DNA from: Candidatus Woesearchaeota archaeon
Lineage (GTDB): Archaea > Nanobdellota > Nanobdellia > Pacearchaeales > GW2011-AR1
Length of the DNA: 63,067 nucleotides
Direction of reading: 5' to 3'
NCBI GenBank assembly: GCA_964647695.1
Contig: CAZYIS010000003.1
Location: 24,848 to 87,914, forward strand
Positions 11,312 to 32,465 of the stretch are shown one piece after another (the first letter of the stretch is position 1; every line of letters starts with the position of its first letter). The notes below the pieces were generated by a model. It saw nothing but the letters and a program-made list of their open reading frames with translations. It was not told the origin of the DNA and did no database searches. Both the position numbers and the translations under genes were made by a program.

Positions 11312-12532
11312 ATGAAAACAGATTACTTTCCTTTGGCTTTTGGCAATTTAAAACATAGAGGTCTACGTTCTTATCTAACAATGCTAGGAATTTTCATAGG
11401 CATTGCTGCAGTGGTTTCACTCATATCCGTAGGCGATGGATTAAAACTTGCAGTAAATTCTCAATTTGGAGTAAGCAGCACCCAAGTATTAACGGTCCAA
11501 GCCGGAGGTTTAACGGGCTATGGTCCTCCCGGAACTGGAGTAGTTAATCCTCTTCAAAAATCCGATGTGGAAGCCATAGATAAACTGGGTAGTGTAGACA
11601 TGGCCATTCGAAGAAACATAGGCGTAGTAAAACTCGAATTCAATAAAAAATTAGTAATCGGCTATGCCGGTTCAATTCCCGATGATAAAGCAAAAAGAGA
11701 TCAGGTATACAAAGTTCTGGAAGTAAGCACCCTATCCGGAAGATTACTGGACACTGATAGAAAAAAAGTAGTCATAGGTTATGATCTATCCATTGCAGAA
11801 AAGAATGGATTCAACAAAGCATTGAAAGTTGGAGATAAAATAACCATTAATAATCGAAGCTATGAAATCGGAGGAATTCTAAATAAAAAAGGTAGTTTCA
11901 TATTTGATAAAATAATTTTAATGTTGGACTCAGAAATGCAAGACCTTACGGGCTATGGTGACAATGTAGATATTATTGCCGTGGTGGCTAAAGATCAAAA
12001 TTCTTTAACCAGAGCCCAGAATGATGTTGAAAAATTACTCCGAGATAGAAGACATGTAAAAAAAGGAAATGAAGACTTTGAAGTTTCCACTCCTGCTGCT
12101 CTTCTAGGTACCGTTAATCAAATTCTTTTTGGAGTTCAAATTTTCATCGTTATGATTGCCTCCATTTCCATAATTGTCGGAGCCGTAGGAATAGCAAACA
12201 CCATGATCACATCCATCCTTGAAAGAAAAAAAGAAATAGGAACCATGAAAGCCATCGGCGCCCGTAATTCAGACATATTTTACATATTTACTCTTGAAGC
12301 TGGAATGCTAGGGTTAGTAGGAGGCATAGTCGGAGTAATCTTTGGAGCCGCCCTCGGATATTTCGGAACTCTAGGCATAAGTAGTTTAATAGGATCCAAT
12401 ATAACTCCAAATATAAATTTCCCATTGATATTTGCTGCCTTAACAGGAAGCACATTACTAGGAATTGTATCCGGTCTCATTCCTGCTTTGAAAGCAGCCC
12501 AATTAAATCCCGTTGCCGCACTAAGAGGTTAA
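11312..12532 (+). CDS. ABC-transporter permease, FtsX/MacB family
   Basis: N-terminal TM helix, a roughly 220-aa periplasmic-type domain, then three C-terminal TM helices. Carries the family hallmark ANTMITSILERKKEIGTMKAIGA. 406 aa. Confidence 0.85.
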   Translation: MKTDYFPLAFGNLKHRGLRSYLTMLGIFIGIAAVVSLISVGDGLKLAVNSQFGVSSTQVLTVQAGGLTGYGPPGTGVVNPLQKSDVEAIDKLGSVDMAIRRNIGVVKLEFNKKLVIGYAGSIPDDKAKRDQVYKVLEVSTLSGRLLDTDRKKVVIGYDLSIAEKNGFNKALKVGDKITINNRSYEIGGILNKKGSFIFDKIILMLDSEMQDLTGYGDNVDIIAVVAKDQNSLTRAQNDVEKLLRDRRHVKKGNEDFEVSTPAALLGTVNQILFGVQIFIVMIASISIIVGAVGIANTMITSILERKKEIGTMKAIGARNSDIFYIFTLEAGMLGLVGGIVGVIFGAALGYFGTLGISSLIGSNITPNINFPLIFAALTGSTLLGIVSGLIPALKAAQLNPVAALRG

Positions 12533-12533
12533 A

Positions 12534-13742
12534 ATGTTCATTAAAAAAGAAATAGTTAATTATTCATTGAAGAGCATCGTAAAAAGAAAAACCAGAAGCA
12601 TATTAACAATTCTATCCATTCTTATAGGTATTACAGCCATATTTATTTTCATTAGTTTTGGTTTTGGTCTCTATGCTTACATAAATTCATTTTCCACTTC
12701 TACTTCAGCAGATAAAATAACCGTGATGCCCAAAGGTAACAGTGCTCCCGGATTAAATACGGCCTTTGCCCTCAATGATAGCGATATAAAAGCCGTGGAA
12801 AAATCCGCAGGCATAACCGAAGCAACCGGAGTCTATTCCCGAGCTGCAGAAGTAAAGAAAAAAGATGTTAACAAATATGTTTTTCTTGTGAGCTATGATC
12901 CAGCCAAACCTCTAGTCCTAGAACTGGCTAGTGTAGATATTGTTGAAGGAAGAAAACTACAGAGCAATGATATGGGCAAAGCAGTGGTAGGTTATAATTA
13001 TAAATTAGAAAATAAAGTATTTTCCACAGGCTATAAGCTAGGCGACAGCATAGAAATAAATGGAGTCAATGTTAGAATAATAGGTTTTGTAGGATCCATG
13101 GGCAATCCATCCGATGATTCTCAGATTTATATCACCAATGATTATTTCAAAAAACTCTATCCCAATGTAACCAGCTATGCTGAAATTATTGCTAGAGCAG
13201 ATATAAATGATATTAGCAATACCATAAAAAGAGTTGAAAAAAATCTCCGTAATTCTCGAGATCAAAAAGAAGGAGAAGAAGACTTCTTTGTATCTTCATT
13301 CCAAGATCTAATTGCCCAATTTTCTTCTGCCCTTAACATAGTCATAGGATTCGTAATTCTAATTGCACTTATATCCGTAGTAGTATCGGCCGTAAACACG
13401 GCCAACACCATGATCACTTCAGTGCTTGAAAGAACTAGAGAGATAGGAACCATGAAAGCCGTCGGAGCTAGAAATAAAGAAATATTAAAAATATTTTTAT
13501 TTGAATCCTCATTCCTAGGATTTGTAGCAGGAGTACTTGGAACTCTTCTAGGATTTGACATCTCATTCACCATTGGAACCATTCTTAAAAATCTTGGCTG
13601 GGGTTTCCTTCAACCAGGTTATCCTTGGTATCTATTTGTAGGAACCATAGCATTTGCAACTCTAACTGGAGCTCTTTCGGGAATATGGCCGGCCTATAGA
13701 GCATCAAGATTAAAGACCGTAGAAGCCCTCCGTTATGAGTAA
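12534..13742 (+). CDS. ABC-transporter permease, FtsX/MacB family (paralog)
   Basis: Same architecture and hallmark (ANTMITSVLERTREIGTMKAVGA). It starts 1 nt after the stop of the previous gene. 402 aa. Confidence 0.85.
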   Translation: MFIKKEIVNYSLKSIVKRKTRSILTILSILIGITAIFIFISFGFGLYAYINSFSTSTSADKITVMPKGNSAPGLNTAFALNDSDIKAVEKSAGITEATGVYSRAAEVKKKDVNKYVFLVSYDPAKPLVLELASVDIVEGRKLQSNDMGKAVVGYNYKLENKVFSTGYKLGDSIEINGVNVRIIGFVGSMGNPSDDSQIYITNDYFKKLYPNVTSYAEIIARADINDISNTIKRVEKNLRNSRDQKEGEEDFFVSSFQDLIAQFSSALNIVIGFVILIALISVVVSAVNTANTMITSVLERTREIGTMKAVGARNKEILKIFLFESSFLGFVAGVLGTLLGFDISFTIGTILKNLGWGFLQPGYPWYLFVGTIAFATLTGALSGIWPAYRASRLKTVEALRYE

Positions 13743-16053: not shown

Positions 16054-16971
16054 TTAATTCTTCTTGTCTACGATCGTGCTTAGGATAGGACTAGTACTGA
16101 TTTGAATCAGTCTAAATATTTCTCTCAAATATGAAAGAACAACTGTTTCTTTTCCCTTGGAACTTTCCAACTGCTTTAGAATCACATCAAAATTGTATTT
16201 TCTAGCTTCATTATGTAGCCTATGCACCTTTTCCAAATCTTTTTCTTCGAATGATTCCGACAATAGAGAGAAATATTTATTTAACTCCAACATTAGTTTT
16301 ATAGTCCTATCTCCAAGTTTAGGTTTTTTTTCATTCAAATAAACATAAAGATAGTATAGACCATGTTCTATATGCTGTAGAAATGTTAAAAACTCCCAAA
16401 GCAGAACTGGATTTCCTTGCACACTACCTTTAGTAATTAATCTTCTACAGAACAATAAAAATCTATCATGATTAGCTCTTATATCATTCATTTCATTAAT
16501 ATTCGAGAATTTTCCTTTTTTGCATTCTTCATTCACAAAATTAATTGTTTCTGAAGTTAACAATAGCAATCTTTTCATGATAACATCGAACTTTTGATCA
16601 GTAGGTTCAGATATATTTTCTATAACTGCTGATTTTTCATCTTTCTTTGTTATTTCGAAACCCAAAAGCAATGAACTAACTATCTTTTTCAATTCATTTG
16701 AAGAATTATTATCTAAATTAGTTATATTTATCTTATCAATGCCTCTCCTGTAGCCATGGGTTAAAATTATTCTTAAGTCAGTCCTATTATTTTCATTTAT
16801 CTCTAAATTCAACTCAGATTTGGTATTAGTCCCTGCTCTGATTATTAATAAATTGTCCTCTTCCTGCACATCTATGCTTTCTCCACCCTTCAATCCCTTT
16901 TCATCAATCCACTTCTTAGGCAAATAGATGGTATAGCCTCCTCCGCCTTGTTTAATGAGCTTTCTTTCCAT
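16054..16971 (-). CDS. AbrB/SpoVT-domain plus PhoU-like-domain regulator
   Basis: N-terminus MERKLIKQGGGGYTIYLPKKWIDEKGLKGGESIDV is a typical AbrB/SpoVT domain. The remaining roughly 240 aa is all-helical and the size of the archaeal PhoU-like phosphate-uptake-regulator family. It is divergent from the large operon. Confidence 0.65.
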   Translation of the reverse strand: MERKLIKQGGGGYTIYLPKKWIDEKGLKGGESIDVQEEDNLLIIRAGTNTKSELNLEINENNRTDLRIILTHGYRRGIDKINITNLDNNSSNELKKIVSSLLLGFEITKKDEKSAVIENISEPTDQKFDVIMKRLLLLTSETINFVNEECKKGKFSNINEMNDIRANHDRFLLFCRRLITKGSVQGNPVLLWEFLTFLQHIEHGLYYLYVYLNEKKPKLGDRTIKLMLELNKYFSLLSESFEEKDLEKVHRLHNEARKYNFDVILKQLESSKGKETVVLSYLREIFRLIQISTSPILSTIVDKKN

Positions 16972-17013
16972 GAATATATCAAATTCTCGTGGTATTTAAG
17001 CCTTTTGATATGA

Positions 17014-17032
17014 CTGATATCAATAATATCAG
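17014..17032. promoter_or_regulatory. perfect palindrome CTGATAT-N5-ATATCAG (candidate operator) between the AbrB-PhoU gene and the operon
   Basis: Read directly. It is embedded in four GATAT/ATATC motifs spaced 9-10 bp apart (17007, 17016, 17026, 17036). Confidence 0.4.
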
Positions 17033-17067
17033 AAAGATATTAAAGTCTAATTATTGGTTAATACATT

Positions 17068-17089
17068 GTAACTACATAGTAGCTACATA
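17068..17089 (+). repeat. tandem 11-bp direct repeat GTA(A/G)CTACATA x2 in the operon leader/promoter region
   Basis: gtaactacata followed by gtagctacata, 28 nt upstream of the first ATG (17117). Confidence 0.5.
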
Positions 17090-17116
17090 AAACAAACACA
17101 CGGAGAAAAGAAAAAA

Positions 17117-17779
17117 ATGAAAAACACAATAAAAAACATCGCAATGTCAACACTAGCAGCAGTCACCTTGGTAACCCCAAGCGCATCTGCCCTAGACATG
17201 ACTCCTCATGGAAGAGCAGAAGTAATGATTGGAGATGAAACTTCACTTCTAGACCTAAAGGTAAGTCAAAATGTGACTGAAAAGCTAAACCTATTTGGAA
17301 GAGCAAAACTAACCAGAGATAATCTAAAGCACACTGACACTCCATTCGCATTCATTGACGTAAACTATTCTCTAGGCCATGGAATAAACGCAGTCTATGA
17401 AACCCAATTCATAGATCTAAAGGATTCTACTTTAATCCAACCTAGATTTGGACTTAGCTATGCTGGAAAACTTGCAAAGGATCTATCCTTCTTTACCCAA
17501 ACCAGCGTAAACATCACTCAAGATAAGGATCCTAAGAGAAATGGAGAAAACATTACTAATCTTAGATATGCTCCTAAAATTGGAAACTCAGATTACTATG
17601 GTCTAGCCCAGGTTGAAACCTGCACCAACTTTGGAAGCGATGGACTTAATTTCGCAACCCAAAACTTCAGATTTGGAGTTGGAAAAAGCAAACTAGAAGC
17701 AGGTCTTGCCCTAAATCTAAAGGAAACTGACAAAACATTCAGCAGCACAATTGGAGGATTTGTAGCCTACAAATTTTAA
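17117..17779 (+). CDS. operon gene 1: secreted beta-rich protein with OMP-like C-terminus
   Basis: Sec-type signal peptide MKNTIKNIAMSTLAAVTLVTPSASA|LD. Alternating hydrophobic/polar pattern throughout. It ends ...IGGFVAYKF, an aromatic terminal residue like a bacterial beta-signal. 220 aa. Confidence 0.65.
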   Translation: MKNTIKNIAMSTLAAVTLVTPSASALDMTPHGRAEVMIGDETSLLDLKVSQNVTEKLNLFGRAKLTRDNLKHTDTPFAFIDVNYSLGHGINAVYETQFIDLKDSTLIQPRFGLSYAGKLAKDLSFFTQTSVNITQDKDPKRNGENITNLRYAPKIGNSDYYGLAQVETCTNFGSDGLNFATQNFRFGVGKSKLEAGLALNLKETDKTFSSTIGGFVAYKF

Positions 17780-17783
17780 CACA

Positions 17784-18170
17784 ATGACATCACCACAGTC
17801 AATAGAAGATAGAACACTTGAATATGCATCAAGGATAGAACAAAGAATAGAAAAACTTCAAACTGCTTACAATGCAGCTTCAAAAATTTTAGATAGTCAT
17901 GATGAACCAGCTCATGAAAGACTTGAAAATGCAAACTTAAAACTAGAATCTATAGTACAAAGTGATCCTGTTTTTTTGAAATTACTTGAATGTTGGAATA
18001 ACACCTACGCTTTCTATCCTGCAAATGAAAGCTCAAAGATAACAAAGAAAATTAATGATGAAAGTTATAAAATAAGATCTAGAACCATGGATGAAAAAAC
18101 CTACATGGTCTATCTTGAAACTCCACAATTTGAATTACATGACTTATTATTGGGAGGAGATTCAAAATGA
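17784..18170 (+). CDS. operon gene 2: hypothetical protein
   Basis: 128 aa, helical/acidic. It starts 4 nt after the gene 1 stop. Confidence 0.6.
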   Translation: MTSPQSIEDRTLEYASRIEQRIEKLQTAYNAASKILDSHDEPAHERLENANLKLESIVQSDPVFLKLLECWNNTYAFYPANESSKITKKINDESYKIRSRTMDEKTYMVYLETPQFELHDLLLGGDSK

Positions 18171-18739
18171 CATCCGATAAAAGCAATGTTTTAACCAAAT
18201 ATCACATACTGATGACTCAGAGTAAAACCACTAAAGTAACTAATGAACCTTTAACTAAAAAAACAGCGGATGAAAGAATTGAAAAGCTAAGAAATAATAG
18301 TTTCAATCCCCCCTATAAGATATCTTATGAAATAGTTCCAGTAGAAATCAAATTACCAAAAGCAGGTCTACCTATTGTAGGAGATAGCCTATACGTTCCA
18401 GGAGGATTAGAAAACACATTAATTAGTTCAGGACTAGATAAGGTTTTTATAAAAAGAATTATAGGTGGTCTAGCCACAGTCAATTCACTTAGATGTGTGA
18501 ATGATGAATTCTGGGTTGTAGATTTCAAAGAATTGACCTATCCAAATACCCATACTGGATGTGCTGACTTATCCGAAGATCGTGTTCCTTATCTATTAGA
18601 ATCACTTCAGAAGAATCAATCAAGATACGAAAGACTTTACGGAAAAAGAGAAGCTAGAATTATATGTGATAGAGACAGCGCAAGAGGAGCAGTTGCAGGA
18701 CAAGACTTTCGTGATTCAAACGAAGGAGATTGGAAATGA
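18167..18739 (+). CDS. operon gene 3: hypothetical protein
   Basis: 190 aa. ATGA overlap with gene 2, with GGAGGAG 8 nt upstream of the ATG. Confidence 0.6.
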   Translation: MTSDKSNVLTKYHILMTQSKTTKVTNEPLTKKTADERIEKLRNNSFNPPYKISYEIVPVEIKLPKAGLPIVGDSLYVPGGLENTLISSGLDKVFIKRIIGGLATVNSLRCVNDEFWVVDFKELTYPNTHTGCADLSEDRVPYLLESLQKNQSRYERLYGKREARIICDRDSARGAVAGQDFRDSNEGDWK

Positions 18740-19488
18740 ACGCTCTATCTAAAAATATAGTTATTGGAGCAACAGGACTAGCATCATTAGTTGCCCCTAT
18801 GCAAACAAATGCTCAAACCCTCGAAGTAGCAGATCAAAAGCCATTGATAAATAGCCCATACATAAGTTCAACCATTAAAAGTGAATATGGTGGATCAAGA
18901 GGGTTCACATCTTCAACCGGTGGAGCCTGGCAAAATGATTTTGGATTTAACATTGGCAAGGTTACATTCGATTGCTGGTCTAACTTTGATGTTCAAAAAA
19001 ACAAGCTAAACGAAATAGACTATGGTCTTTCCTATGGATTCAATTTTAAGGGTAACAATATTAGCATTAGTGCTACTGATTTCACATCTCCAACCAGTGA
19101 TTTCAAAAACTGTGTTGAAATTGGAGTTAATGTATCAAGAAATCTAACCTCAGGTAAATATCCTCTATCAGTCAATGCCTATGCAGGAGAATTATTTGGA
19201 GTAAAAGAATATGAAGGACAATTCTTCAGTCTTGGACTTAATCAATCAGTTCCAATTGTAAAGAATGTAAAACTAGATCTTTCAACCATGGTTGCCTATG
19301 ATAATCATTACTTTGGAGTTCAAGGTTCTGGATTTTCTCACGCCCAGGTAGGAGCAGGCCTAGATGTCAAACTAATGAAAGATATTCATGTAAAACCTTT
19401 TGTCTCAGTTCAAAAAGCTGTTGAAAGTTTAGGGGGAACTTTCAAAGACAATTTAGTTTACGGACTAACTGTCAGCAAGTCTTGGTAA
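18736..19488 (+). CDS. operon gene 4: secreted beta-rich protein with OMP-like C-terminus
   Basis: I place the start at the ATG at 18736 (ATGA overlap, GGAG upstream) rather than the TTG at 18730. Signal peptide MNALSKNIVIGATGLASLVAPMQTNA|QT. Alternating pattern throughout. It ends ...LVYGLTVSKSW. 250 aa. Confidence 0.65.
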   Translation: MNALSKNIVIGATGLASLVAPMQTNAQTLEVADQKPLINSPYISSTIKSEYGGSRGFTSSTGGAWQNDFGFNIGKVTFDCWSNFDVQKNKLNEIDYGLSYGFNFKGNNISISATDFTSPTSDFKNCVEIGVNVSRNLTSGKYPLSVNAYAGELFGVKEYEGQFFSLGLNQSVPIVKNVKLDLSTMVAYDNHYFGVQGSGFSHAQVGAGLDVKLMKDIHVKPFVSVQKAVESLGGTFKDNLVYGLTVSKSW

Positions 19489-19489
19489 A

Positions 19490-19963
19490 ATGGCAACCGA
19501 CTATGGACTTACTGCAAAAATATTAGAACAAAATAATCCTAAAAATCTATTTGAGCTCATTAAGGGAGATTATAAACCATTTTCAAATTTCAAAATAAAA
19601 GTAGATAATAAAAACTTTGAAGAAATTAATCATAAAGGAACTGTAAAAGCAATAAGAGATAGACTAAAAGGCCTACATTTAACTCTAAGAAGAACCTCTA
19701 ATGAAAGAATACCCTATTTAGAAATAAATCCTTCCAGAGCAGGACAGATTATCCTAAATCCATATAATGCAGAGGTTATACAAACACACCAGGAATCAAA
19801 AAATGCTAGTATCACTTATGAAAATGACTCTTTAATGCATGGAAGAAGCCTAAGGGTATATGAAGAAGGTAATTCATCTTTGGAAATTAAACTAGATGAC
19901 CAATTTCCCTACATGCTAAAATCCATGGATCCAGACAAAACTGGACTGGGAGCAAGAAAATGA
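19490..19963 (+). CDS. operon gene 5: hypothetical protein
   Basis: 157 aa. It starts 1 nt after the gene 4 stop. Confidence 0.6.
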   Translation: MATDYGLTAKILEQNNPKNLFELIKGDYKPFSNFKIKVDNKNFEEINHKGTVKAIRDRLKGLHLTLRRTSNERIPYLEINPSRAGQIILNPYNAEVIQTHQESKNASITYENDSLMHGRSLRVYEEGNSSLEIKLDDQFPYMLKSMDPDKTGLGARK

Positions 19964-20208
19964 GTAAAGAAGACATTGCTTTTGCGATAGGTGCCACATT
20001 TCTAGTTGTTTCTGCATGCACTATTGCATACAGAGGATTTGAAAGAAAATTAGAAAAAGTAGTATCACAGTCTAATCCTGCTCTAGTAACTGCTAACACT
20101 ATAGGCAATTCAACTCCTGATAAATTCTATCAAATAGGGACCAACAGAGCCTATGTTGAAATTGACGGCCGTTCTATTGAAAGTTATAATTTCGGAGGCA
20201 TGAAATAA
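19960..20208 (+). CDS. operon gene 6: small single-pass membrane protein
   Basis: 82 aa with one TM helix (IAFAIGATFLVVSACTIAY). ATGA overlap with gene 5. Confidence 0.55.
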   Translation: MSKEDIAFAIGATFLVVSACTIAYRGFERKLEKVVSQSNPALVTANTIGNSTPDKFYQIGTNRAYVEIDGRSIESYNFGGMK

Positions 20209-21011
20209 TGACTGCCATAAAAACCAATGGATATTCACGTTCTTCTGAACAAAGAGTATTTAGCGGTGGAAAAAATCATGATTGGATTTTTGACTATCCT
20301 GGAGTTTTTTACGATAAAGGATACAAATTAGAAGATGTTTCTTTCAAAGAAGAAAATGCAGGTATAATAAACCTGGGTCTACTTTCAGTAACTGGAAATG
20401 TTAGTTATTTTAATCAAAACCTAGGTAGACTTAAACTTGGTTCAACCACAAGTTCTTTTTTTTGGTTAACTCTAACTGATTTAAAAAATTCAATCAAAGA
20501 AAAAAATCTTCCAGCAATCTCTAATGAAGATGAAAAAGTTCTAGAAGAAAAACTAGCCTATTCATTAGGTAACTGGGCCAATCTAAGAAGAACCTATAAT
20601 CGTGAGAATACTGGAATTCCAGCAGAAATATATATGGAATTTGAAAATGAGGGCAGTCCAACACCCATAATAAGAGTCGGACTGGAAAACCTTGCCTATT
20701 TACCTATGCATCAAGATAAACCAGCAGTCTTTGCAACACCCTATTTTATAACCGGAAGAGCTAATTTACTAGATAAGGTAAAAGCAGTCTGTAATATATT
20801 CAAAACTAATGATAGTGTTAAACTAGGCAAATCTAGTCTGACTAAAACCTATCTACCAAGACTTAATTTTACAAAAAGTGAACTTAAAGGCACAGGACCT
20901 GCCGAGTATGAAGTTAAACTTACCTATTCTTTTAAAGAATTAAGAGAATATGCCTTAACCTGTCCAACAGTTCCAAGAGACGGCATTTCTCCAGGAGGAA
21001 ATGCAAAATGA
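20208..21011 (+). CDS. operon gene 7: hypothetical protein
   Basis: 267 aa. TAATG overlap with gene 6, with GGAGG upstream. Confidence 0.6.
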   Translation: MTAIKTNGYSRSSEQRVFSGGKNHDWIFDYPGVFYDKGYKLEDVSFKEENAGIINLGLLSVTGNVSYFNQNLGRLKLGSTTSSFFWLTLTDLKNSIKEKNLPAISNEDEKVLEEKLAYSLGNWANLRRTYNRENTGIPAEIYMEFENEGSPTPIIRVGLENLAYLPMHQDKPAVFATPYFITGRANLLDKVKAVCNIFKTNDSVKLGKSSLTKTYLPRLNFTKSELKGTGPAEYEVKLTYSFKELREYALTCPTVPRDGISPGGNAK

Positions 21012-21787
21012 AAGACTTTAAGATGGATTGGCTGCCTTTAATCGAAATACCTAAAACTATTCCAGGTGTTAGTTTTATTTATGATGCCACATTACTAAAG
21101 GAATATGATGACCGAGTAGAAGCCGATTTCGATAATAATCCTGCTTTAAAAATTCTAGATTATAGTCAAGGAGTTGTAAGAGGATCTAATCCTTTTGCCG
21201 TTGCACTAATTAATTCTATCGTTTCTCCCCTAGGATATAGAGTTGCAAATCAAGCAGACCTAGAAAAGACATTAAAAATGAGTGATCTTCCATTATCAGG
21301 TCGCTATGAAGATACTGCTTTAGTTCTAAGAAATAGAGAGAATCCAAATTCATATTTAGCTGGAAATCTTGCAGACCAAGTTGAAAAGAGAGTATATAAT
21401 ATAAATAATCTAAAAAAACCTTTAGTTATTCCACTCTCGGGATTAGAAGTTGTAAAAGATAATAATTCTGAATATGGACTTGCTTTCAAATTAACTGACA
21501 AAGCACAAATAATTGTAGCTCCAATATTATCAAAAAATAATGGAAGCTATATTGATTCATCTGAAATGAACTCAGAAACTGGACTTCCAAATTGCATATT
21601 TACTAATGCTAAACCTGGAAATAGACAATTATGGACTAGAGGTTCTGGACTTTCAAGATTGTTGATTAATGGTGATCTAGATCTTGACTCAAAGGACACT
21701 AATCTGTTTAACTCTGGCTCCTATGGTAGAATAGTTTTGGTAAATGATAAATTAGATTCAAGAATATTATTCGGAGGAAGAAAATGA
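21008..21787 (+). CDS. operon gene 8: hypothetical protein
   Basis: 259 aa. ATGA overlap, with CCAGGAGGA upstream. Confidence 0.6.
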   Translation: MKDFKMDWLPLIEIPKTIPGVSFIYDATLLKEYDDRVEADFDNNPALKILDYSQGVVRGSNPFAVALINSIVSPLGYRVANQADLEKTLKMSDLPLSGRYEDTALVLRNRENPNSYLAGNLADQVEKRVYNINNLKKPLVIPLSGLEVVKDNNSEYGLAFKLTDKAQIIVAPILSKNNGSYIDSSEMNSETGLPNCIFTNAKPGNRQLWTRGSGLSRLLINGDLDLDSKDTNLFNSGSYGRIVLVNDKLDSRILFGGRK

Positions 21788-22278
21788 ATTCTACTAAAAA
21801 AAGAATAATATCTTTAATGACTGCAGGAATGTTAACTGGAGTTCTAGGGATGTATGATGGAATAAATACCATATTTGATTATCAAGAAACAAAAGAAGTC
21901 TCCTCTCTTAAAGAAAAAGGGATCTCAGCAGTAAAAACATTAGAAACTCTTGAAAGAGAAAGAAATTGGATTACACCCCTTCCAAAAATAGATTATTCAT
22001 CTGAAAAATTAAAACCCTATTTAGATTCACTCACTAACTTTTATGCTCATAATGATGAGAAAATAAAAACATTGGATGATGCAATTACCATTGTTAAATC
22101 CGACCTAGAAACAATAACAAATAATCCAGTCTATCTGAGAGATAGATCTGAAGTAAAACAAATGGAAAGAAATGCAGAGATGCATTTCTTTGGAGGATTT
22201 GGTTTAATATTAGTTTCATTATGTTATGGAATAGAGTCACTAGTATCAAATAAATCTAAGGATGAGGGTAAAAAATGA
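21784..22278 (+). CDS. operon gene 9: two-pass membrane protein
   Basis: 164 aa. TM helices IISLMTAGMLTGVLGMY and FFGGFGLILVSLCYGI flank a roughly 110-aa loop. ATGA overlap, with GGAGG at 21773-21777. Confidence 0.6.
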   Translation: MNSTKKRIISLMTAGMLTGVLGMYDGINTIFDYQETKEVSSLKEKGISAVKTLETLERERNWITPLPKIDYSSEKLKPYLDSLTNFYAHNDEKIKTLDDAITIVKSDLETITNNPVYLRDRSEVKQMERNAEMHFFGGFGLILVSLCYGIESLVSNKSKDEGKK

Positions 22279-22532
22279 CTGCCTATGAATTAAGCGAAGT
22301 TGTAAAAATAGCAAGAGTATACTGTGAATTAGAAGCCCAAACCATAAATTTTTATGCAGAAAGTTTTTCGGGTAAGAAAGAAGTATTAGAAACTGCTAAA
22401 TCATGTATTAAAGCAATAAAAGAATATAGATTAATTCCCGAAGAAATAAGAAAAGAGTTTAATCATGGAAATTTAGAGTATAATGAATTAGAAAAATTAT
22501 GTAATGATACTATATTAGGAGGAAAGAAATGA
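22275..22532 (+). CDS. operon gene 10: hypothetical small protein
   Basis: 85 aa with ATGA overlap. It shares its first 13 nt (ATGACTGCCTATG) with gene 11. Confidence 0.55.
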   Translation: MTAYELSEVVKIARVYCELEAQTINFYAESFSGKKEVLETAKSCIKAIKEYRLIPEEIRKEFNHGNLEYNELEKLCNDTILGGKK

Positions 22533-22774
22533 CTGCCTATGTAGCCGTATTCAAAGACCTAAAGGGCAAATATCTTCCTAACTTTTGTTCCGATGAAAGT
22601 GCTCACGAGGCAAATCTAGCTCTAGGAAAAGAATTAAACTATGAACTAGTCTATCAAAACAATTTCAGAAGCTATGAACCCTGCCTAGTTGTAGAAAAAT
22701 TCATTAGAGATGCCAATGAAAAAGGTAAATTTGATGCTAAAGATCTAGAATCTAGATTGGGAGTAAAGAAATGA
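22529..22774 (+). CDS. operon gene 11: hypothetical small protein
   Basis: 81 aa. ATGA overlap, with GGAGGA upstream. Confidence 0.55.
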   Translation: MTAYVAVFKDLKGKYLPNFCSDESAHEANLALGKELNYELVYQNNFRSYEPCLVVEKFIRDANEKGKFDAKDLESRLGVKK

Positions 22775-23796
22775 AATCTCAAATATCATTAGATAATCGA
22801 CTTTTTGGAATCCCTTGTAGAGAAGTTGTAACCTACACAGTTCATTCACTAATAAAGCATTTTGATTTTTTCAATAAACTTGGAAAAAATGAATGGACTT
22901 TTGAAAAAATAACAAAAGAATTTGGTTTCGATGGAAGAGTATTTGATGCAACCTTAAACTATCTAAGAAAAGAAGGATTATTAGAAAAATCAGGTATAGA
23001 CTCAACAAAATATGTTTTAACAAAAGACGCGTTAAGATTTTTAACAAGAGAGGGTAAAAATGATTTAAGCTCATTCGTAACTATTTTGGAAGGTTGTGTT
23101 CCAAATAAAGCAGCTGATGCAATTGCTTTTGCTTTAACAACAGGCACCTCTGCAAAGTGGAATGAAACAGAAAGTTGGAGTGCGGCTATGAAAAGTGGAG
23201 CAATATCTCAAAGATTTTCAGAAGGAATGATGGCTAGAGGAAAATATCTTTCAGAAACATTAGTTACTTCATTAAAAGATGTTCTTTCTGATAGAAGAAG
23301 TTTACTCGACATCGGAGGATCTTTAGGAGATTATTCTGGAGTCTTCGCTAGAAACAATCCAAATTTACAATGCGCTGTTTTTGATTTACCTAAAGTAATT
23401 GAAGGCACTAAAAGAAATATATCTCAGAGAGGATATGAAAGAGTAATTACTGTGGACGGGGATTTTTTCTCAGATAATTTACCAAAAGGATATGATGCAC
23501 ACTTCTATTCTAACGTTTTACATGATTGGACCCAAGAGAAAGTTAAGGTGTTGCTCAAAAAGTCCCATGAGGCATTAAATCCATCAGGTAAAATTATAAT
23601 TCATGGAATGCACCTAAACTCAGATAAAACTGGACCAGAACTAGCCATAGATCATTCTCTTTATCTTTCAGTATTTACTGAAGGTAGAAACTATTCAACA
23701 AAAGAAATTAGTGAAATGCTTAAAGGTGTAGGTTTCAAGAGATCACAGAAATATCATTCAGCAGGAGGCTATAGTGCTATAGTTGCAACAAAATGA
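22771..23796 (+). CDS. operon gene 12: O-methyltransferase, family 2 (COMT/natural-product type) with N-terminal winged-helix dimerisation domain
   Basis: Motif I LLDIGGSLGDYSG, the family-2 hallmark SNVLHDWTQEK (catalytic His in LHDW) and LNPSGKIIIHG. The N-terminal roughly 100 aa is winged-helix-like (LNYLRKEGLLEK). 341 aa. Confidence 0.8.
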   Translation: MKSQISLDNRLFGIPCREVVTYTVHSLIKHFDFFNKLGKNEWTFEKITKEFGFDGRVFDATLNYLRKEGLLEKSGIDSTKYVLTKDALRFLTREGKNDLSSFVTILEGCVPNKAADAIAFALTTGTSAKWNETESWSAAMKSGAISQRFSEGMMARGKYLSETLVTSLKDVLSDRRSLLDIGGSLGDYSGVFARNNPNLQCAVFDLPKVIEGTKRNISQRGYERVITVDGDFFSDNLPKGYDAHFYSNVLHDWTQEKVKVLLKKSHEALNPSGKIIIHGMHLNSDKTGPELAIDHSLYLSVFTEGRNYSTKEISEMLKGVGFKRSQKYHSAGGYSAIVATK

Positions 23797-24464
23797 AAGA
23801 ATTTAAAGTGAAACATCAGGGAGAGAACCTATTTTTTTATTTTCCCTATGCAGGTAGTGCAGATTTACAAAGTCTAGCAAAGCAAATGAATCTATCAGCA
23901 GTGACATTTCCAACATTCTCTCAAACAGTTTCTCTTATTTATGAGGCCCATAATCAACCAGATCATCCCATTGCTAAAAGCATTTTAGAATCTTTAAGTC
24001 ATGCTGGGGAGGGATTAACTTCCATGACTCTTGTACGTGGAATGAAAGATTATATTCAGATAATTGAAGGCAAAGATTTACAATATGAATTTAAGATTCA
24101 TTCACTTCAAGAACTTGCAGAGAAAGGTATACTTGAACATAAAAACAACACAATAAGAACCTCGAGTTATGGGAGGAATGATAATAATTTAGGTCCTTTA
24201 GAATTAGAAAGAAATGAATATATTAATAAAATCGCAGGAGATGAAGGAGCTAAAAAGATTGCCGAACTTGTAGCCTATAGTAATAAACCTGCAGAGATAA
24301 CACAACCATATCAAGATCAAGTAGGTGCGGCGATTATAAGAAAATATGATGGAAAATTCGAGATAAGCTTTGGAGCAGCAGATCATAGAGTATTTGGCTA
24401 CATGCCCTGGAGATCTAATAAACAAAAAAGTTTAGTTTCTAGACTTATTAGAGGTAAAAAATGA
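23793..24464 (+). CDS. operon gene 13: hypothetical protein
   Basis: 223 aa with ATGA overlap. Confidence 0.6.
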   Translation: MKEFKVKHQGENLFFYFPYAGSADLQSLAKQMNLSAVTFPTFSQTVSLIYEAHNQPDHPIAKSILESLSHAGEGLTSMTLVRGMKDYIQIIEGKDLQYEFKIHSLQELAEKGILEHKNNTIRTSSYGRNDNNLGPLELERNEYINKIAGDEGAKKIAELVAYSNKPAEITQPYQDQVGAAIIRKYDGKFEISFGAADHRVFGYMPWRSNKQKSLVSRLIRGKK

Positions 24465-24895
24465 CTACTAAATTATCTCAAAGACAATATAATGGATTTG
24501 TAGATACATTACTAGAAAGACCTGCAAAAGGCTGGAAGAATGATTTTTCAGAAACTCGAAATGTTTTTTATCCTGACATGTCCCATAGAGGTGAATCTAA
24601 ATATAAACAATACTCTACAGTTGTAAGAAATGGAAAGTTAAAAGGACACAGATTAGAGTTATATTTTAGCTGGACTGAAGTATCCGCCCATAACGTATCC
24701 TCCGATGAAAACATACGTGAAGATAGAGTGACTATATCTAACGAAAGAATCCCCGAACCCTATTACGCATTAACAATTAAGAAAGGTAGAAAAACAGTTT
24801 ATGAATCAGAAAGCCGAAACCTTGAGGGCACTTATTGGGATCATAGATTGAAAGATCTACATGAAAATATTAAAAAGAATAGGAGCAGTCCATGA
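24461..24895 (+). CDS. operon gene 14: hypothetical protein
   Basis: 144 aa with ATGA overlap. Confidence 0.6.
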   Translation: MTTKLSQRQYNGFVDTLLERPAKGWKNDFSETRNVFYPDMSHRGESKYKQYSTVVRNGKLKGHRLELYFSWTEVSAHNVSSDENIREDRVTISNERIPEPYYALTIKKGRKTVYESESRNLEGTYWDHRLKDLHENIKKNRSSP

Positions 24896-25590
24896 CCTAT
24901 CAAGTTAATTTCACTCAAGAACAAATAGAAAGAATAAAAGAAGCAAGAAAGGGATTAGTAGCAAAAACACTGGAAGTGCCGGCCCATGGAAAAATTGTTG
25001 AACATGAAGGAAAACCTGGAAATTATTATTTTGTTCTTCCAACAGTTTTTCAACCAAACGCAGGTTGCATTCCATTAATTGAAAATTATAAAATAAATAA
25101 AGGCGAAAGAGTTCTAGATTTTGGAACTGGATGTGGAGTAATAGCCATAGATTCTGCAAAAAGAGGAGCCCATGTGGCTGTTGGAATAGATATAAATAAA
25201 GAAGCCGTAAGAAGTGGTAAAATAAATGCTATTTTACATAAAGTTAATGATAATTGTCTAATTTACGATGGTGAAATTGTTAAGAATGGTAAAAAAGATT
25301 TTAATGTTATAACTGCAAACCTTCCTTTCACCAATGAAATTTGCTCAAAAATAGAAGAAAAAGCAGCCTATGATCAAGGATTAACTGCCCATAGAGAATT
25401 ATTCCAACTAGCAGAAAACAGATTAACTAAATTTGGAAGAGTATATTTAGCCCAAGCAAACTTCGGTGCAGTAGATGAAGTTTTAGATTTAGCAAAAGAA
25501 CATGGATTTTCTCACAGATTAATTGGTCAAAAAGAAGCCTGGGAACCTTCAGCAGTCTTCTATGCTTTTGAACTTTGGAGGAAAAAATGA
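24892..25590 (+). CDS. operon gene 15: SAM-dependent methyltransferase, small-domain (HemK/PrmC/RsmC-like) N-methyltransferase type
   Basis: Motif I VLDFGTGCGVIAI, motif II GIDINKEAV, motif IV ITANLPF (NPPY-class variant). 232 aa. Confidence 0.75.
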   Translation: MTYQVNFTQEQIERIKEARKGLVAKTLEVPAHGKIVEHEGKPGNYYFVLPTVFQPNAGCIPLIENYKINKGERVLDFGTGCGVIAIDSAKRGAHVAVGIDINKEAVRSGKINAILHKVNDNCLIYDGEIVKNGKKDFNVITANLPFTNEICSKIEEKAAYDQGLTAHRELFQLAENRLTKFGRVYLAQANFGAVDEVLDLAKEHGFSHRLIGQKEAWEPSAVFYAFELWRKK

Positions 25591-26189
25591 CTTCATTTAT
25601 AATCAACCCCAATTCAATTAAATGGTATGTTGCTAATGTCCAAGAAGCCACTAAACCAAGTCATGAATGGAATGGCATAACTGATTATGACTCACATTTA
25701 AATGATATTAGAGCAAAGAATAAAGAAGAATATGAATCTGCATTAAAAGACGCCTGGAACCAAACCAATCCTTTAGTGAAAGCCTATCTAAAATTCAGAG
25801 GAAAAAATCCAAGTATCGATTCTAGAATTATGGAACCTGCAATGCTAGAGTTTCTAATAGGATTAGAATCGCAGACCATGAAAAATCTAGAACTAAGATA
25901 TGCTTTAAAACCCGATACGGACAAAGCAGTAGATATTTCTTCCCTAACTCCTGACGTTCATCCTAAAACCTATCAATGCAGCGACCTAGAAATTAATAAA
26001 GAAGGTTTTGGAAATGAAAGATATAAATTACTATTGGAAAATGCATTTTCCGATGCACAAAAAAGTAGATTTGATTTCGTTTCGGTTTCAGAACCAAGAT
26101 TTATTTCCTATAGACATTCAGATTTTGCTTCCTGGTCTGGAAAAATTCCAATTTACCAAATGAACGCAACATTCTGGAGGAAAAGATGA
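25587..26189 (+). CDS. operon gene 16: hypothetical protein
   Basis: I place the start at the ATG at 25587 (ATGA overlap, TGGAGGA upstream) rather than the TTG at 25575. 200 aa. Confidence 0.6.
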   Translation: MTSFIINPNSIKWYVANVQEATKPSHEWNGITDYDSHLNDIRAKNKEEYESALKDAWNQTNPLVKAYLKFRGKNPSIDSRIMEPAMLEFLIGLESQTMKNLELRYALKPDTDKAVDISSLTPDVHPKTYQCSDLEINKEGFGNERYKLLLENAFSDAQKSRFDFVSVSEPRFISYRHSDFASWSGKIPIYQMNATFWRKR

Positions 26190-26887
26190 CATCTGACATA
26201 AATCAAAACAAACTCTCCACCCAATATGATGAAATAGGCAAAGAATATCTTTCCGCACGAGAAGCATTCTATCAAAACGTAGCCGATGGAGCTAAATTAT
26301 TCATTGATTCCCAATTAACAAGAGTAAAACCTACAAGAGGGCGTTTCTTACTTGATATAGGATGCGGAGATTGTAGCGATACTGAAAAATACAAAAAATT
26401 AGGTTTCAAAACATTTGGTTTAGACTCATCAAGAGTTATGCTAGATAAAGCTATAGAAAAAGGATTTGATCCAGAACATCTAATTCATTCAAGTATGGAT
26501 AATATTCCTGCAAGCGAGAAATCATTTGATGTCCTAACCTCTCGTTACGCATTACATTACCTTGAAAATTTAGATCCTGCATTTGAAGAATTTGCAAGAA
26601 TTATAAAACCAGAAGGATTATTAGTATTCATTGTAGGTCATCCATTAAACAATTTACTAAGACAACAAAATAAAGTCTATGGAGAAAAAGAAGTAATAGA
26701 AGTTCCACTTTATGGAGATAAAACCACTGTAAAGAGTGTAAGCCATACCTTCTCAGATTACATTTCTCCTACTTTCCTAAATAATTTTGATCTTCTTCAT
26801 TTAGAAGAAGGCAAACAAAAAAATGAAAAAGAAATCGAAGGATTCCAAACACCTGGATTTCTGGGTTTTGTAGGGAGGAAAAGATGA
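26186..26887 (+). CDS. operon gene 17: class I SAM-dependent methyltransferase
   Basis: Motif I LLDIGCGDCSD, GLDSSRVML, FDVLTSRYALHYL, IKPEGLLVF. 233 aa. Confidence 0.8.
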   Translation: MTSDINQNKLSTQYDEIGKEYLSAREAFYQNVADGAKLFIDSQLTRVKPTRGRFLLDIGCGDCSDTEKYKKLGFKTFGLDSSRVMLDKAIEKGFDPEHLIHSSMDNIPASEKSFDVLTSRYALHYLENLDPAFEEFARIIKPEGLLVFIVGHPLNNLLRQQNKVYGEKEVIEVPLYGDKTTVKSVSHTFSDYISPTFLNNFDLLHLEEGKQKNEKEIEGFQTPGFLGFVGRKR

Positions 26888-27585
26888 CAGACCTATTTAA
26901 ATTAGTTAAAGAAACTAATCCTGCCTGGCTTCAAGAGTCTCTAGATAAAGAAGCTAAGTTCATACTAGAACAAGCAGCCGAATCAAGAATTAGTAAAATA
27001 TTAGCTAATGAACTAGGAACTAAAGAATCTAAAATACGTAAAATAAGAGAATTTGTAGATAATTCTGAAAAAATGTTAGTACACATTGTCTACCTAGGAC
27101 CCCGAGATAGAAAAGATATCGGCGATGCAATAGCAAAAGCAAATTCTAGATTGGATTATGAATTAAGCTATAGAGATAGTTTAGATGGACTAAATATAAA
27201 AGGAAATTGGGATCATGTCTATTGTTCAACCGCATTATTCGGAGAGTTTTCTAGAACAGAATTATATGACAAGATTAAACAATTGGCTGGAAATCTCGAA
27301 CCTAATGGGCGAGTTTCTTTTGCCTATAGACCCCAAAGAAATGGTCCATTGTCACAGGATATTGAAATAATGTTGAAAAAAGAATCCAGAGTAGACTCCT
27401 TTTCAGATATGATATTATCCTGCTCTAGAAATAGAAGAATAAGGAGATACGATAAATTAGAAGAGACAGAATTATATGATATATTTACTAGACATAACTT
27501 GTTTACCAATGGCGAACCGTATAAAATAGGAGCTTGGGATGTTATGACTGGAATTAAAATTAAAACACCCGAGGTTAAACAATGA
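26884..27585 (+). CDS. operon gene 18: methyltransferase-fold-like protein with degenerate SAM motif
   Basis: WDHVYCSTALFGEFS...LEPNGRVSFAY lines up with FDVLTSRYALHYL...IKPEGLLVFIV of gene 17, but the GxGxG position reads IVYLGPRD. 233 aa. This is a weak call made by eye. Confidence 0.4.
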   Translation: MTDLFKLVKETNPAWLQESLDKEAKFILEQAAESRISKILANELGTKESKIRKIREFVDNSEKMLVHIVYLGPRDRKDIGDAIAKANSRLDYELSYRDSLDGLNIKGNWDHVYCSTALFGEFSRTELYDKIKQLAGNLEPNGRVSFAYRPQRNGPLSQDIEIMLKKESRVDSFSDMILSCSRNRRIRRYDKLEETELYDIFTRHNLFTNGEPYKIGAWDVMTGIKIKTPEVKQ

Positions 27586-28337
27586 ACTCTGATCTTTCTA
27601 ATTTAACTGAACCACAAAAAACTCAAGTGATAATGCAATGGCAGAAACAGCAACATCTGACCCATGAAAGAGATATTGAATTAACTGCCCTGGGAGATAA
27701 ACTAAAAGACTTTGTTATTTATCATCAGGTTTGGAACCCAGCCATAACTTCCGCCCGATATCACGCATCCTATTTATTAATGAACAATGAAAGACTCTAT
27801 TCTGGTAAAAGAGTTCTTGACATGGGCTGCGGAACAGGATTAATGGGAGTAATAATGGGACTAAATGGCGCTAATTCAGTTACTTTTAGTGATATTTCGG
27901 AAACAGCCGTTGCAAATGCAAAAGAAAATGTTGAAAGATTCGACCTAAAAGGAAAATCCTACTTCAGCACAGGAGACCTATTCCAAAATTTGAATCTACC
28001 TGATGATATGTTTGATTTTATAGTTTTTAATCATCCTTTCTTTTCAGCTACTCCTTCAGAAAAAGGTGAAAAAGACCTAATAGCCCAAAGCATGCTTGCA
28101 GATAGAAAATTAATTGAAAGATTCTTAAAAAATGCGAAAGAAAGAATAGATGATAAATCAAGAATAATGATGCCTTTCTTTAGTTTAGCAGAAAATGATT
28201 CTAACTCTAATAGCCCATTGATATTGGGTGAAAAACTAGGCTACAATGTAGAACCTACCTTCTGTTTAGAATCTAATTTTGGATTACAGAAAGGAACCCA
28301 TACTATCTATGAATTAACATTGAGAGGTAAAAGATGA
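27582..28337 (+). CDS. operon gene 19: SAM-dependent methyltransferase, small-domain N-methyltransferase type
   Basis: Motif I VLDMGCGTGLMGV, FSDISETAV, motif IV IVFNHPFF (NPPY-class variant). 251 aa. Confidence 0.75.
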   Translation: MNSDLSNLTEPQKTQVIMQWQKQQHLTHERDIELTALGDKLKDFVIYHQVWNPAITSARYHASYLLMNNERLYSGKRVLDMGCGTGLMGVIMGLNGANSVTFSDISETAVANAKENVERFDLKGKSYFSTGDLFQNLNLPDDMFDFIVFNHPFFSATPSEKGEKDLIAQSMLADRKLIERFLKNAKERIDDKSRIMMPFFSLAENDSNSNSPLILGEKLGYNVEPTFCLESNFGLQKGTHTIYELTLRGKR

Positions 28338-28798
28338 CGCGTAAAATGGCCTTTGGAGAAAAAGTTTGGCTAAGAGAATCAAAAATTGCGAGAATGTTAG
28401 TTGATCAATTTGGAAGTAACTTTCCATGGTATATGCCCAATGGATTAACACCTCAAATAGGAATTCAAATAGCAGCAGATTATGCCCTACATACTGGAGA
28501 ATCATTTCTGAATATAAAAGAAGTAGAAGATAAAACAAAAGTAATTAAAGTATTTTCTAGGATGCCTGTCATTGATGACCTAGGTCATGCTGATGGTTTT
28601 GGAAATGAATTTGGAATGATTGCCTACACTCAACATGACAATCTCTGCTTGACAAGAAACAAACTAGATGAATATCTTAATAATCAAAATATCCGTTCAA
28701 GAAGATTACTTCATTTCGATAAAAATGACGAATTATTCTTTTGTAATGGTGTTAAAACCTATTATTCTGATTTATATCAATTATGGGGTAAAAAATGA
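28334..28798 (+). CDS. operon gene 20: hypothetical protein
   Basis: 154 aa with ATGA overlap. Confidence 0.6.
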   Translation: MTRKMAFGEKVWLRESKIARMLVDQFGSNFPWYMPNGLTPQIGIQIAADYALHTGESFLNIKEVEDKTKVIKVFSRMPVIDDLGHADGFGNEFGMIAYTQHDNLCLTRNKLDEYLNNQNIRSRRLLHFDKNDELFFCNGVKTYYSDLYQLWGKK

Positions 28799-31524: not shown

Positions 31525-32061
31525 CTATTTTAAAATTACGTGGCCAACTCCCGTTAGCATTCTATTTATTTTTTTAGAATTCCAAAATGTATATTGTCCG
31601 CTTCCCTTTAGATATCTCTGCACATAACCATGTTCATGACCTATCATTCTCGATATATCGCCAGTACTTAATCCGCTTCTGATTCCACTGTCAATTTCAG
31701 GAATTCCATCCAGAGTTAAAGAATCCAATAGCTCAATTACCATAAATCCTCTAATATGTTTCTCTTTCCTAAACACATCTAGATAATCAAGTTTTTCAAT
31801 TGCTCCAAAAAATCCAAACGGTGTATAATTAAACTGTTTTCTAACCTGAAAAAGATATTTTGTACCTCTTAGTACTTCATTTAATGCATCCTTAAGACCT
31901 TGTTTTCTAATATCATTAAAATAATCTCCCGTAGAAGAATGAATGAATTTGCTAAATTCTGCTGAAGAACACTTCAAATCAAGTTTTTTAATAATTTCCT
32001 GTTCATGCATTCCAGATTTAATCAATTCTATTATCGATTCAAGGTGACCGAGGGTTTTCAT
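31525..32061 (-). CDS. minus-operon gene 8: HTH-containing hypothetical protein
   Basis: I place the start at the ATG at 32061 (MKTLGH...), 1 nt after the upstream stop. Two HTH-like segments (IIELIKSGMHEQEIIKKL; GLSTGDISRMIGHEHGYVQRYLK). 178 aa. Confidence 0.55.
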   Translation of the reverse strand: MKTLGHLESIIELIKSGMHEQEIIKKLDLKCSSAEFSKFIHSSTGDYFNDIRKQGLKDALNEVLRGTKYLFQVRKQFNYTPFGFFGAIEKLDYLDVFRKEKHIRGFMVIELLDSLTLDGIPEIDSGIRSGLSTGDISRMIGHEHGYVQRYLKGSGQYTFWNSKKINRMLTGVGHVILK

Positions 32062-32062
32062 T

Positions 32063-32464: not shown

Positions 32465-32465
32465 A

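Follow-up and report, generated by a model that had tools for sequence, protein, structure and literature searches.

Predicted bacterial-type outer-membrane beta-barrels in a variable genomic island of a DPANN-type archaeon

Introduction

Do some archaea encode transmembrane beta-barrels of the bacterial outer-membrane type and, if so, what might such proteins do in an archaeal cell envelope? To our knowledge, a transmembrane beta-barrel with a signal peptide and a C-terminal beta-signal is taken to mark the bacterial outer membrane or an organelle derived from it, and such barrels are unexpected in archaea. The question is raised by two genes, here called gene 1 and gene 4, in a 63,067-nucleotide stretch attributed to a Candidatus Woesearchaeota archaeon (assembly GCA_964647695.1, contig CAZYIS010000003.1, positions 24,848 to 87,914; hereafter the window). 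An original prediction, made from the letters of the window, had recognized in both products the signal peptides, alternating strands and aromatic C-termini of bacterial outer-membrane proteins (OMPs). We find that both proteins very probably fold as OMP-type barrels of twelve predicted strands, that they belong to an archaeal contig, and that they represent two separate families, one of them a likely remote relative of bacterial porins. The elements of the two genes, in window coordinates, are as follows.

17117–17779, plus strand: gene 1, a 220-amino-acid (aa) precursor, predicted 12-stranded OMP-type beta-barrel, family 1 (open reading frame, AlphaFold2, Foldseek)
17117–17191, plus strand: Sec-type signal peptide of gene 1, residues 1–25, cleavage predicted between ASA and LD
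17753–17776, plus strand: beta-signal-like C-terminus of gene 1, GGFVAYKF
18736–19488, plus strand: gene 4, a 250-aa precursor, predicted 12-stranded OMP-type beta-barrel, family 4 (open reading frame, AlphaFold2, Foldseek)
18736–18813, plus strand: Sec-type signal peptide of gene 4, residues 1–26, cleavage predicted between TNA and QT
19456–19485, plus strand: beta-signal-like C-terminus of gene 4, VYGLTVSKSW

Export signals, strand pattern and C-terminal motifs

The first 25 residues of gene 1, MKNTIKNIAMSTLAAVTLVTPSASA, followed by LD, comprise a lysine-rich n-region, a hydrophobic core and an A-x-A site, and the first 26 residues of gene 4, MNALSKNIVIGATGLASLVAPMQTNA, followed by QT, comprise a basic n-region and a hydrophobic core and likewise fit the A-x-A rule. 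The N-termini quoted in the original prediction, with TPSASA before LD and PMQTNA before QT, were correct, and the relatives have comparable N-termini, with signal peptides in nearly all members of both families. The assessment of these signals followed the general rules for signal peptides and drew on the AlphaFold2 models, in which the N-terminus is helical and of low confidence. An in-frame TTG at 18730 would extend gene 4 to 252 aa; public gene calls start at the ATG and give 250 aa.

The dyad alternation of hydrophobic and polar residues that had been noticed along both chains is borne out strand by strand: averaged over each face, the Kyte-Doolittle hydropathy comes to about +1 to +2.5 on one side and to about −0.4 to −2.4 on the opposite side in the majority of the 12 strands predicted for either protein. 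No transmembrane helix is present in either mature chain, where the maximum 19-residue mean hydropathy is about 0.6. The C-termini, IGGFVAYKF in gene 1 and LVYGLTVSKSW in gene 4, had also been read correctly, and a beta-signal-like profile is kept in both families. All eight family 1 members end in the motif G-G-F-[VLFI]-[GAS]-[YLWF]-[KN]-[FY], and 68 of the 93 family 4 proteins have an aromatic last residue (F, Y or W; F in 61), these 68 aromatic-ended relatives giving the profile Y-G-G-[IVL]-x-[LVA]-x-[KYVL]-x-F. The enterobacterial porins PhoE and OmpF terminate in ...G-h-x-Y-x-F, and the endings of both archaeal families come close to this bacterial beta-signal.

A rule-based scan of all window open reading frames (100 aa or longer), which looked for an N-terminus resembling a signal peptide and for a mature chain free of transmembrane helices, returned genes 1 and 4 and, apart from them, only obvious false positives. 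Because of this yield, of the proximity of the two genes, which lie about 950 bp apart in the same co-directional string, and of the retention of both the signal peptide and the aromatic end by their homologues, the resemblance of genes 1 and 4 to OMPs is more than chance.

Predicted fold and structural relatives

AlphaFold2 predicted 12 antiparallel strands for each protein. The gene 1 model, built on an alignment of eight sequences, has a predicted local distance difference test (pLDDT) score of 87.5, a predicted template-modelling (pTM) score of 0.77 and very short connections between strands. The gene 4 model, built on 50 sequences, reaches a pLDDT of 89.6 and a pTM of 0.81, and its strands are long, joined by connections of 15, 8, 7 and 10 residues on one side and mostly by turns of two to four residues on the opposite side, an asymmetry of loops and turns that is typical of bacterial OMPs. 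The models were compared with the PDB using Foldseek (matches listed at E ≤ 1e-3). For both genes the matches listed were transmembrane beta-barrels, almost all of them bacterial OMPs, and they included no soluble barrel, no toxin and no OmpW. The top match of gene 1 was PcoB (7pge; template-modelling (TM) scores 0.61/0.67, root-mean-square deviation 4.3 Å over 204 columns), followed by NanC, KdgM, VhGalP and the beta-domains of intimin/invasin and autotransporters; gene 4 matched FapF, Tsx, NanC (TM 0.57/0.68), PcoB, OmpG and KdgM (target TM 0.73). Alignments of the two models with 12-stranded channels gave TM scores of 0.5–0.73 at 10–13% sequence identity. In a library of viral folds only phage-borne bacterial-type OMP-like proteins were matched; a phage DUF481 protein is a structural neighbour of gene 4, and a phage OmpW-like protein matches marginally.

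Twelve-stranded models whose PDB matches are transmembrane barrels argue against a soluble fold such as a beta-sandwich or a jelly roll. Both proteins combine the attributes of the OMP class, namely a signal peptide, an even number of strands, dyad alternation without a helix and an aromatic, beta-signal-like end, and the closure of the barrels and the size of their lumen were deduced from the number of strands and from the way in which the models superpose, over their full length, on 12-stranded barrels of solved structure. We therefore hold with high confidence, as far as structure prediction carries, that both proteins fold as OMP-type beta-barrels. Their hydrophobic face would point outward, because a 12-stranded barrel is too wide to enclose a hydrophobic core.

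The closest known counterparts are the small channels KdgM/NanC, Tsx and PcoB, with which genes 1 and 4 share a mature length of about 200–250 residues, 12 antiparallel strands, a signal peptide and an aromatic C-terminus. Unlike these proteins of Gram-negative bacteria, they are encoded by an archaeon, and they show no detectable sequence similarity to them: neither gene matched KdgM/NanC at the sequence level in Pfam or among PDB sequences, so that the likeness is structural. By analogy with these proteins, genes 1 and 4 probably act as monomeric passive channels. The comparison with OmpW and MipA made in the original prediction did not hold, apart from the general traits of a small exported OMP-type barrel with an aromatic terminus: OmpW has eight strands, against 12 in the models, and MipA appeared as one weak match (E = 0.0031) in a single one of 50 gene 4 relatives. 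Beta-pore-forming toxins, in which a soluble monomer contributes one or two hairpins to an oligomeric barrel, were also considered and rejected, as in the predictions a single chain makes up the whole 12-stranded barrel by itself and has no soluble domain besides.

LpxR, FadL and a COG4313 channel were also among the structural matches. As OMP-fold proteins that handle lipids or other hydrophobic substrates, they lend something to the idea that genes 1 and 4 encode exported barrels other than channels, lodged in a periplasm-like space or associated with an S-layer, which would bind or shuttle hydrophobic ligands, for instance scavenged lipids, or serve as anchors of the envelope. The window also has a bacterial-like CDP-alcohol transferase, and the lipid supply of DPANN archaea is unclear. 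We nevertheless find this idea improbable, given that the strong structural matches are all integral-membrane proteins and that, judging from the geometry of the barrels, their hydrophobic face must be turned towards lipid or detergent.

Two families with different histories

Genes 1 and 4 have no detectable mutual homology (best BLASTP E = 0.4; a profile-profile comparison aligned 12 columns at 35% probability), and we therefore treat them as separate families of the same fold. Family 1 is very small. A collection of 5.8 billion proteins contained eight sequences of 41–100% identity, 185,579 species genomes contained a single locus and Joint Genome Institute (JGI) metagenomes one more, which brings the family to about nine sequences, without recognizable sequence relatives; it is absent from IMG/VR. 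The sole Pfam signal of gene 1 was for DUF481 (PF04338), a YdiY-like family of bacterial OMPs. This assignment had to be discarded, since the match covers 49 residues (85–133) at E = 0.0074 and with 16.8 bits, below the cut-off of 21.1 bits, and only one of the eight family members shows it. NCBIfam gave no match for gene 1 or gene 4, and searches of PDB sequences with the profiles of both families found nothing at E ≤ 10. Gene 1, which belongs to none of the families against which it was compared, is a new, lineage-restricted family of known fold.

Family 4 is larger and has relatives among bacteria. A word-indexed homologue search found one match, or three with a profile, and it was an exhaustive HMMER search of 1.84 billion representatives that recovered the family, with 92 relatives, of which 20 scored at E ≤ 1e-10. 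Three of the 50 aligned members match the Pfam family Gcw_chp (PF09694, TorF-like putative porins of bacteria), the best at E = 4.6e-6, and single members among the 50 match DUF5777, the aforementioned MipA, DUF2490 and Phage_OMP, all of which are families of beta-barrel OMPs. Gene 4 itself has no Pfam match at E ≤ 1, Gcw_chp included. It has a similar length to Gcw_chp proteins and an N-terminal motif region (...S-K-Y-x-x-x-G-F...P-V-x-Q...W-x-N-Y-D...E-x-D) which we take to resemble theirs. One distant relative, P0065, matches gene 4 at a phmmer E-value of 7.7e-6 (computed for the whole library) and has a recorded, weak match to Gcw_chp. Its gene (L017, 650–1411), on a contig with a guanine-plus-cytosine (GC) content of 57%, is flanked on one side by the C-terminus of a sigma-54-type activator and on the other by an Amt ammonium transporter; because of this GC content and these neighbours we regard P0065 as bacterial. 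The same neighbours hint, as a side observation, at a possible part of Gcw_chp-type porins in the uptake of nitrogen or ammonium by bacteria; we found neither a solved structure nor a tested function for Gcw_chp.

In contrast with the bacterial Gcw_chp porins, the family 4 members that could be verified by their genomic context are archaeal, and in a rough neighbour-joining tree they form at least four deep branches. These similarities support a distant homology, which would make gene 4 an archaeal outlier of the Gcw_chp/TorF-like superfamily that lies outside Pfam membership. The original prediction had named horizontal acquisition, secreted pore-formers and a new envelope component as options for both proteins; a bacterial origin is supported, by sequence, for gene 4 and not for gene 1. 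Sequences and models together suggest that bacterial-type OMP barrels have become established and have diversified in DPANN-type archaea. The searchable literature yielded no description of Sec-exported 12-stranded barrels as a family in archaea of the Nanoarchaeia type. According to a one-line remark, a relative of the PopA superfamily may exist in a metagenome-assembled genome of Altiarchaeales (PMC12228718).

Archaeal origin of the locus

The barrel fold and the link to Gcw_chp are bacterial hallmarks and metagenome bins can be contaminated, so that bacterial DNA with the two genes might have been misjoined to archaeal sequence, at the level of the contig or of the bin, or the contig might be bacterial throughout. 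The composition and the gene content of the window speak against both. Its GC content is uniform, at about 33%; its RNase HII passes the cut-off of the archaeal/eukaryotic-type model TIGR00729, another protein matches the Hef-associated nuclease (HAN) model at E = 6.6e-108, three regulators belong to the TrmB family, the SMC protein scores best on the SMC_prok_A model, and the tRNA-Met has an A1-U72 pair. A 405-aa protein (36511–37728, plus strand) with a signal peptide, Ig-like domains of the FixG_C/HYDIN type, a serine-rich stalk and a C-terminal membrane anchor is a candidate archaeal-type surface protein, similar to those of S-layers. A free-standing LAGLIDADG homing-endonuclease-like gene (59889–60548, plus strand) has a tRNA-Ser gene (60575–60659) directly downstream.

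The continuity of the assembly is equally well supported. Read depth is even (8–12x) across 14–31 kb in three independent lake-water runs, single contigs from independent runs bridge positions 16747–20362 and 16860–18938, and the locus recurs in the NCBI assembly GCA_037135175.1, as a 7.4-kb contig reaching from the kinase gene into gene 7 (14.1–20.7 kb), and in a JGI lake metagenome.

The strongest indication comes from the relatives, as no fewer than six further contigs, which stem from various samples and assemblers, have the barrel gene families next to unmistakably archaeal genes. In L013, taken from an 86-kb contig, a TrmB gene lies upstream of the gene 4 relative; then come a gene for an HD-domain protein, SecY and an archaeal operon for the ribosomal proteins L5e, S4e, L30 and S5, with an STT3/AglB gene farther off. 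In L015 (from a 59-kb contig) the gene 4 relative is accompanied by FtsZ, GatD, an ATP-dependent DNA ligase, TBP and an intein-containing MCM, and on L016 (GCA_042584385.1) by TrmB and a wyosine-forming radical-SAM enzyme. Another gene 4 relative, P0031, is annotated as coming from a Candidatus Nanoarchaeia archaeon; L003, recorded as 'uncultured archaeon', has family 1 and family 4 genes beside the same kinase and regulator as the window; and L011, which carries a family 1 gene, has an HTH_10 regulator and a HerA-like ATPase nearby. Synteny and intergenic DNA are also conserved between loci.

Because of the archaeal markers, the even depth, the independent assemblies and the archaeal DNA around the relatives, neither a bacterial nor a chimeric contig fits the data. 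We consider an assembly or binning artefact, already largely refuted, extremely improbable. The contig is archaeal, of which we are highly confident and which agrees with the archaeal look that the original prediction had seen in the rest of the window, and it is not chimeric. The organism is an uncultured low-GC lake archaeon, most likely a DPANN archaeon of the Nanoarchaeia kind.

A variable island behind a conserved control region

The barrel genes belong to an island whose surroundings are better conserved than its content. The following features are needed here.

16054–16971, minus strand: candidate regulator of 305 aa, divergent, with an N-terminal AbrB/MazE-type (SpoVT-AbrB) DNA-binding domain
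16972–17116: divergent control region separating the regulator gene from the first OMP-like gene, with conserved palindromes and TATA-like A/T boxes
17784–18739, plus strand: genes 2 and 3 (128 and 190 aa), between the barrel genes, without significant Pfam match

Genes 1 and 4 are the first and fourth of a co-directional string (17117–30209) in which stops and starts overlap and whose second half is a run of genes for S-adenosylmethionine (SAM)-dependent methyltransferases. This run (22771–30209) contains at least seven such genes, of the O-methyltransferase, PrmA/MTS-like and Methyltransf_11/25 types, interspersed with small open reading frames, all on the plus strand and likewise with overlapping stops and starts; it is partly kept in L006. 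Genes 2, 3 and 5–9 (17784–18739 and 19490–22278), two of which (genes 6 and 9) have hydrophobic segments, have no Pfam match and no homologue in the related loci examined; for genes 2 and 3 in particular, BLASTP found nothing in L003, L004, L006, L011, L013, L015 and L016. They look like lineage-specific insertions in the variable island, and we keep them out of the barrel system because they have no counterpart beside barrel genes elsewhere. No phage or integrase genes surround the locus; as family 1 is also missing from IMG/VR and the viral fold matches are phage-borne OMPs of bacterial type, we set aside a viral or mobile origin.

Comparison of the window with related loci by BLASTP revealed a conserved frame made of a protein kinase, the 305-aa regulator, the variable island, methyltransferases, a NUDIX protein and an AP_endonuc_2 protein, the last a xylose-isomerase-like TIM barrel with weak similarity to endonuclease IV. 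The regulator matches the Pfam family MazE_antitoxin over residues 6–46 (E = 4.1e-5), and its orthologues, at 30–52% identity, directly adjoin OMP-like genes in L006, L004 and L003. What follows the regulator differs, the first gene belonging to family 1 in the window, to family 4 in L006 and to a third OMP-like family in L004. This third family, absent from the window, adjoins the family 4 gene in both L004 (992–2176, plus strand, 394 aa) and L006 (2679–3833, plus strand, 384 aa); its two proteins, 27% identical to each other, have a signal peptide, end in ...GGVWTW and ...QFTYRF, and show a weak match to Porin_4 (E = 0.0019).

The 145-bp spacer between regulator and barrel gene is conserved as DNA in the window, L006, L004 and L003, with a mean column identity of 60% and long invariant blocks, and it is kept although the family of the downstream gene varies between loci. 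Its inverted repeats (16972–17116) include the palindrome TGTAACTA-N5-TAGTTACA, and its conserved blocks include TTGATATGACTnATATCAATAATATCAG and GATATTAAAGTCT. The spacer has no Rfam match, with no riboswitch or known RNA found, and no sigma-70-type promoter is present in it upstream of gene 1. In two archaeal lineages that are more distant, a TrmB-family regulator replaces the AbrB-like one, divergently upstream of the gene 4 homologue (L013, 9115–9900, minus strand; L016, 6765–7907, minus strand).

There may also be variation within the lake population. At position 19023, inside gene 4, a contig in two independent lake metagenome runs leaves the window for about 200 unrelated bases, which suggests a co-existing strain with another 3' half of gene 4 or another neighbour.

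Hypervariability among close relatives, with differing OMP-like families behind the same control region, and the strain breakpoint within gene 4 would fit genes that act at the cell surface or on a host, and DPANN archaea are generally host-dependent. The barrels might accordingly be pores directed at a host, exported by an episymbiont to enter the host membrane, either the outer membrane of a bacterium or the membrane of an archaeon, and to open a channel for metabolites or lipids; that we saw no barrel-assembly machinery in the DNA examined would agree with such a use. The properties of the proteins themselves count against it. They are predicted to be monomers that form the entire barrel and end in a C-terminal signal of the OMP type, unlike the amphipathic hairpins of oligomerizing toxins, they have no soluble pre-pore or receptor-binding domain, no secretion-system gene lies nearby, a barrel with a hydrophobic surface would be hard to keep soluble outside the cell, and known OMPs do not enter membranes from outside. 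We judge host-directed pores unlikely, and slightly less likely still the more specific proposal that the barrels are a conduit through the host membrane for nucleotides, amino acids or lipids, with the OMP-like cassette as a module of host range.

Proposed role in the cell envelope

The reading that we prefer, and to which we give a probability of roughly 0.5, is that genes 1 and 4 encode passive solute channels and that these reside in the archaeon's own outer membrane. Expression would start from the conserved control region under the divergent AbrB-like regulator. Both precursors would be exported by the Sec system and cleaved by signal peptidase I, leaving mature chains of about 195 and 224 aa that would fold into monomeric, closed 12-stranded barrels with a hydrophobic exterior, a polar lumen and an aromatic-ended last strand. 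The barrels would then insert into an outer lipid membrane, the second membrane of the archaeal cell, and let small solutes pass passively, as NanC/KdgM, Tsx and PcoB do. Gene 4 may go back to a bacterial Gcw_chp/TorF-like porin, transferred long ago and later diversified within archaea, and gene 1 would be a lineage-specific family of the same fold.

The outer-membrane pore protein of Ignicoccus, Ihomp1/Imp1227, is a small alpha-helical protein and not a beta-barrel, unlike genes 1 and 4. For the second membrane as such, Ignicoccus, ARMAN and Candidatus Altiarchaeum offer precedents in archaea, and its presence here is plausible because the diderm archaea reported in ARMAN and Altiarchaeum belong to DPANN-related groups (PMC8871954).

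Several points weigh against channels in an archaeal outer membrane. Such a membrane is not documented for this lineage; genes for Omp85/BamA, POTRA domains, Skp/SurA or Lol-type proteins were found neither in the approximately 63-kb window nor in the 20-kb flanks examined around the relatives, which are a small part of any genome; and the insertion of beta-barrels into membranes of isoprenoid ether lipids is, as far as we know, unprecedented. The case is built on sequence and predicted structure: the fold is a prediction, for family 1 backed by eight sequences, and the specificity of the channels is drawn entirely from analogy.

Other features of the window

Two tandem genes (11312–13742, plus strand) encode ATP-binding cassette (ABC) permeases of the MacB/FtsX type, whose extracytoplasmic MacB_PCD domains are large; neither an ATPase gene nor an adaptor gene was identified beside them. 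Diderm bacteria use such an architecture for trans-envelope export or for releasing lipoproteins.

The CDP-alcohol phosphatidyltransferase (46172–46765, plus strand) matches the bacterial PgsA model at E = 4.7e-20 (below the cut-off), archaetidylinositol-phosphate synthase at E = 1.9e-8 and archaetidylserine synthase at E = 4.9e-7, scores that may bear on the lipids made by the archaeon.

Seven genes on the minus strand (31525–36144), including one for a 575-aa protein, have no Pfam or NCBIfam match; paralogous proteins of 206, 210 and 423 aa are found in L004. Also on the minus strand, a SNF2-family helicase lies near a MutS2/KamC-like ATPase (54858–56666 and 57744–59465). The best NCBIfam models for the helicase are those of DISARM DrmD and of DpdE, all below their cut-offs. 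A 578-aa protein with the same match to MutS domain V is encoded in L003 (2237–3973), the locus that bears both barrel families.

Significance for archaeal envelopes

At least two OMP-like barrel families, or three with the neighbouring family of the relatives, would thus occur in genomes of DPANN-type archaea, across several deep branches and together with a conserved regulator. Their presence bears on whether some DPANN archaea have a true outer membrane and on what such a membrane contains, on whether, and by which machinery, beta-barrels can be assembled into membranes of archaeal lipids, and on how solutes might cross the envelope of auxotrophic nano-sized archaea or reach them from their hosts. 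It also bears on the number of origins of diderm envelopes and on the spread of bacterial envelope modules across domains. The proteins are small and easily expressed, which makes refolding, conductance and structural tests feasible without cultivation of the archaeon.

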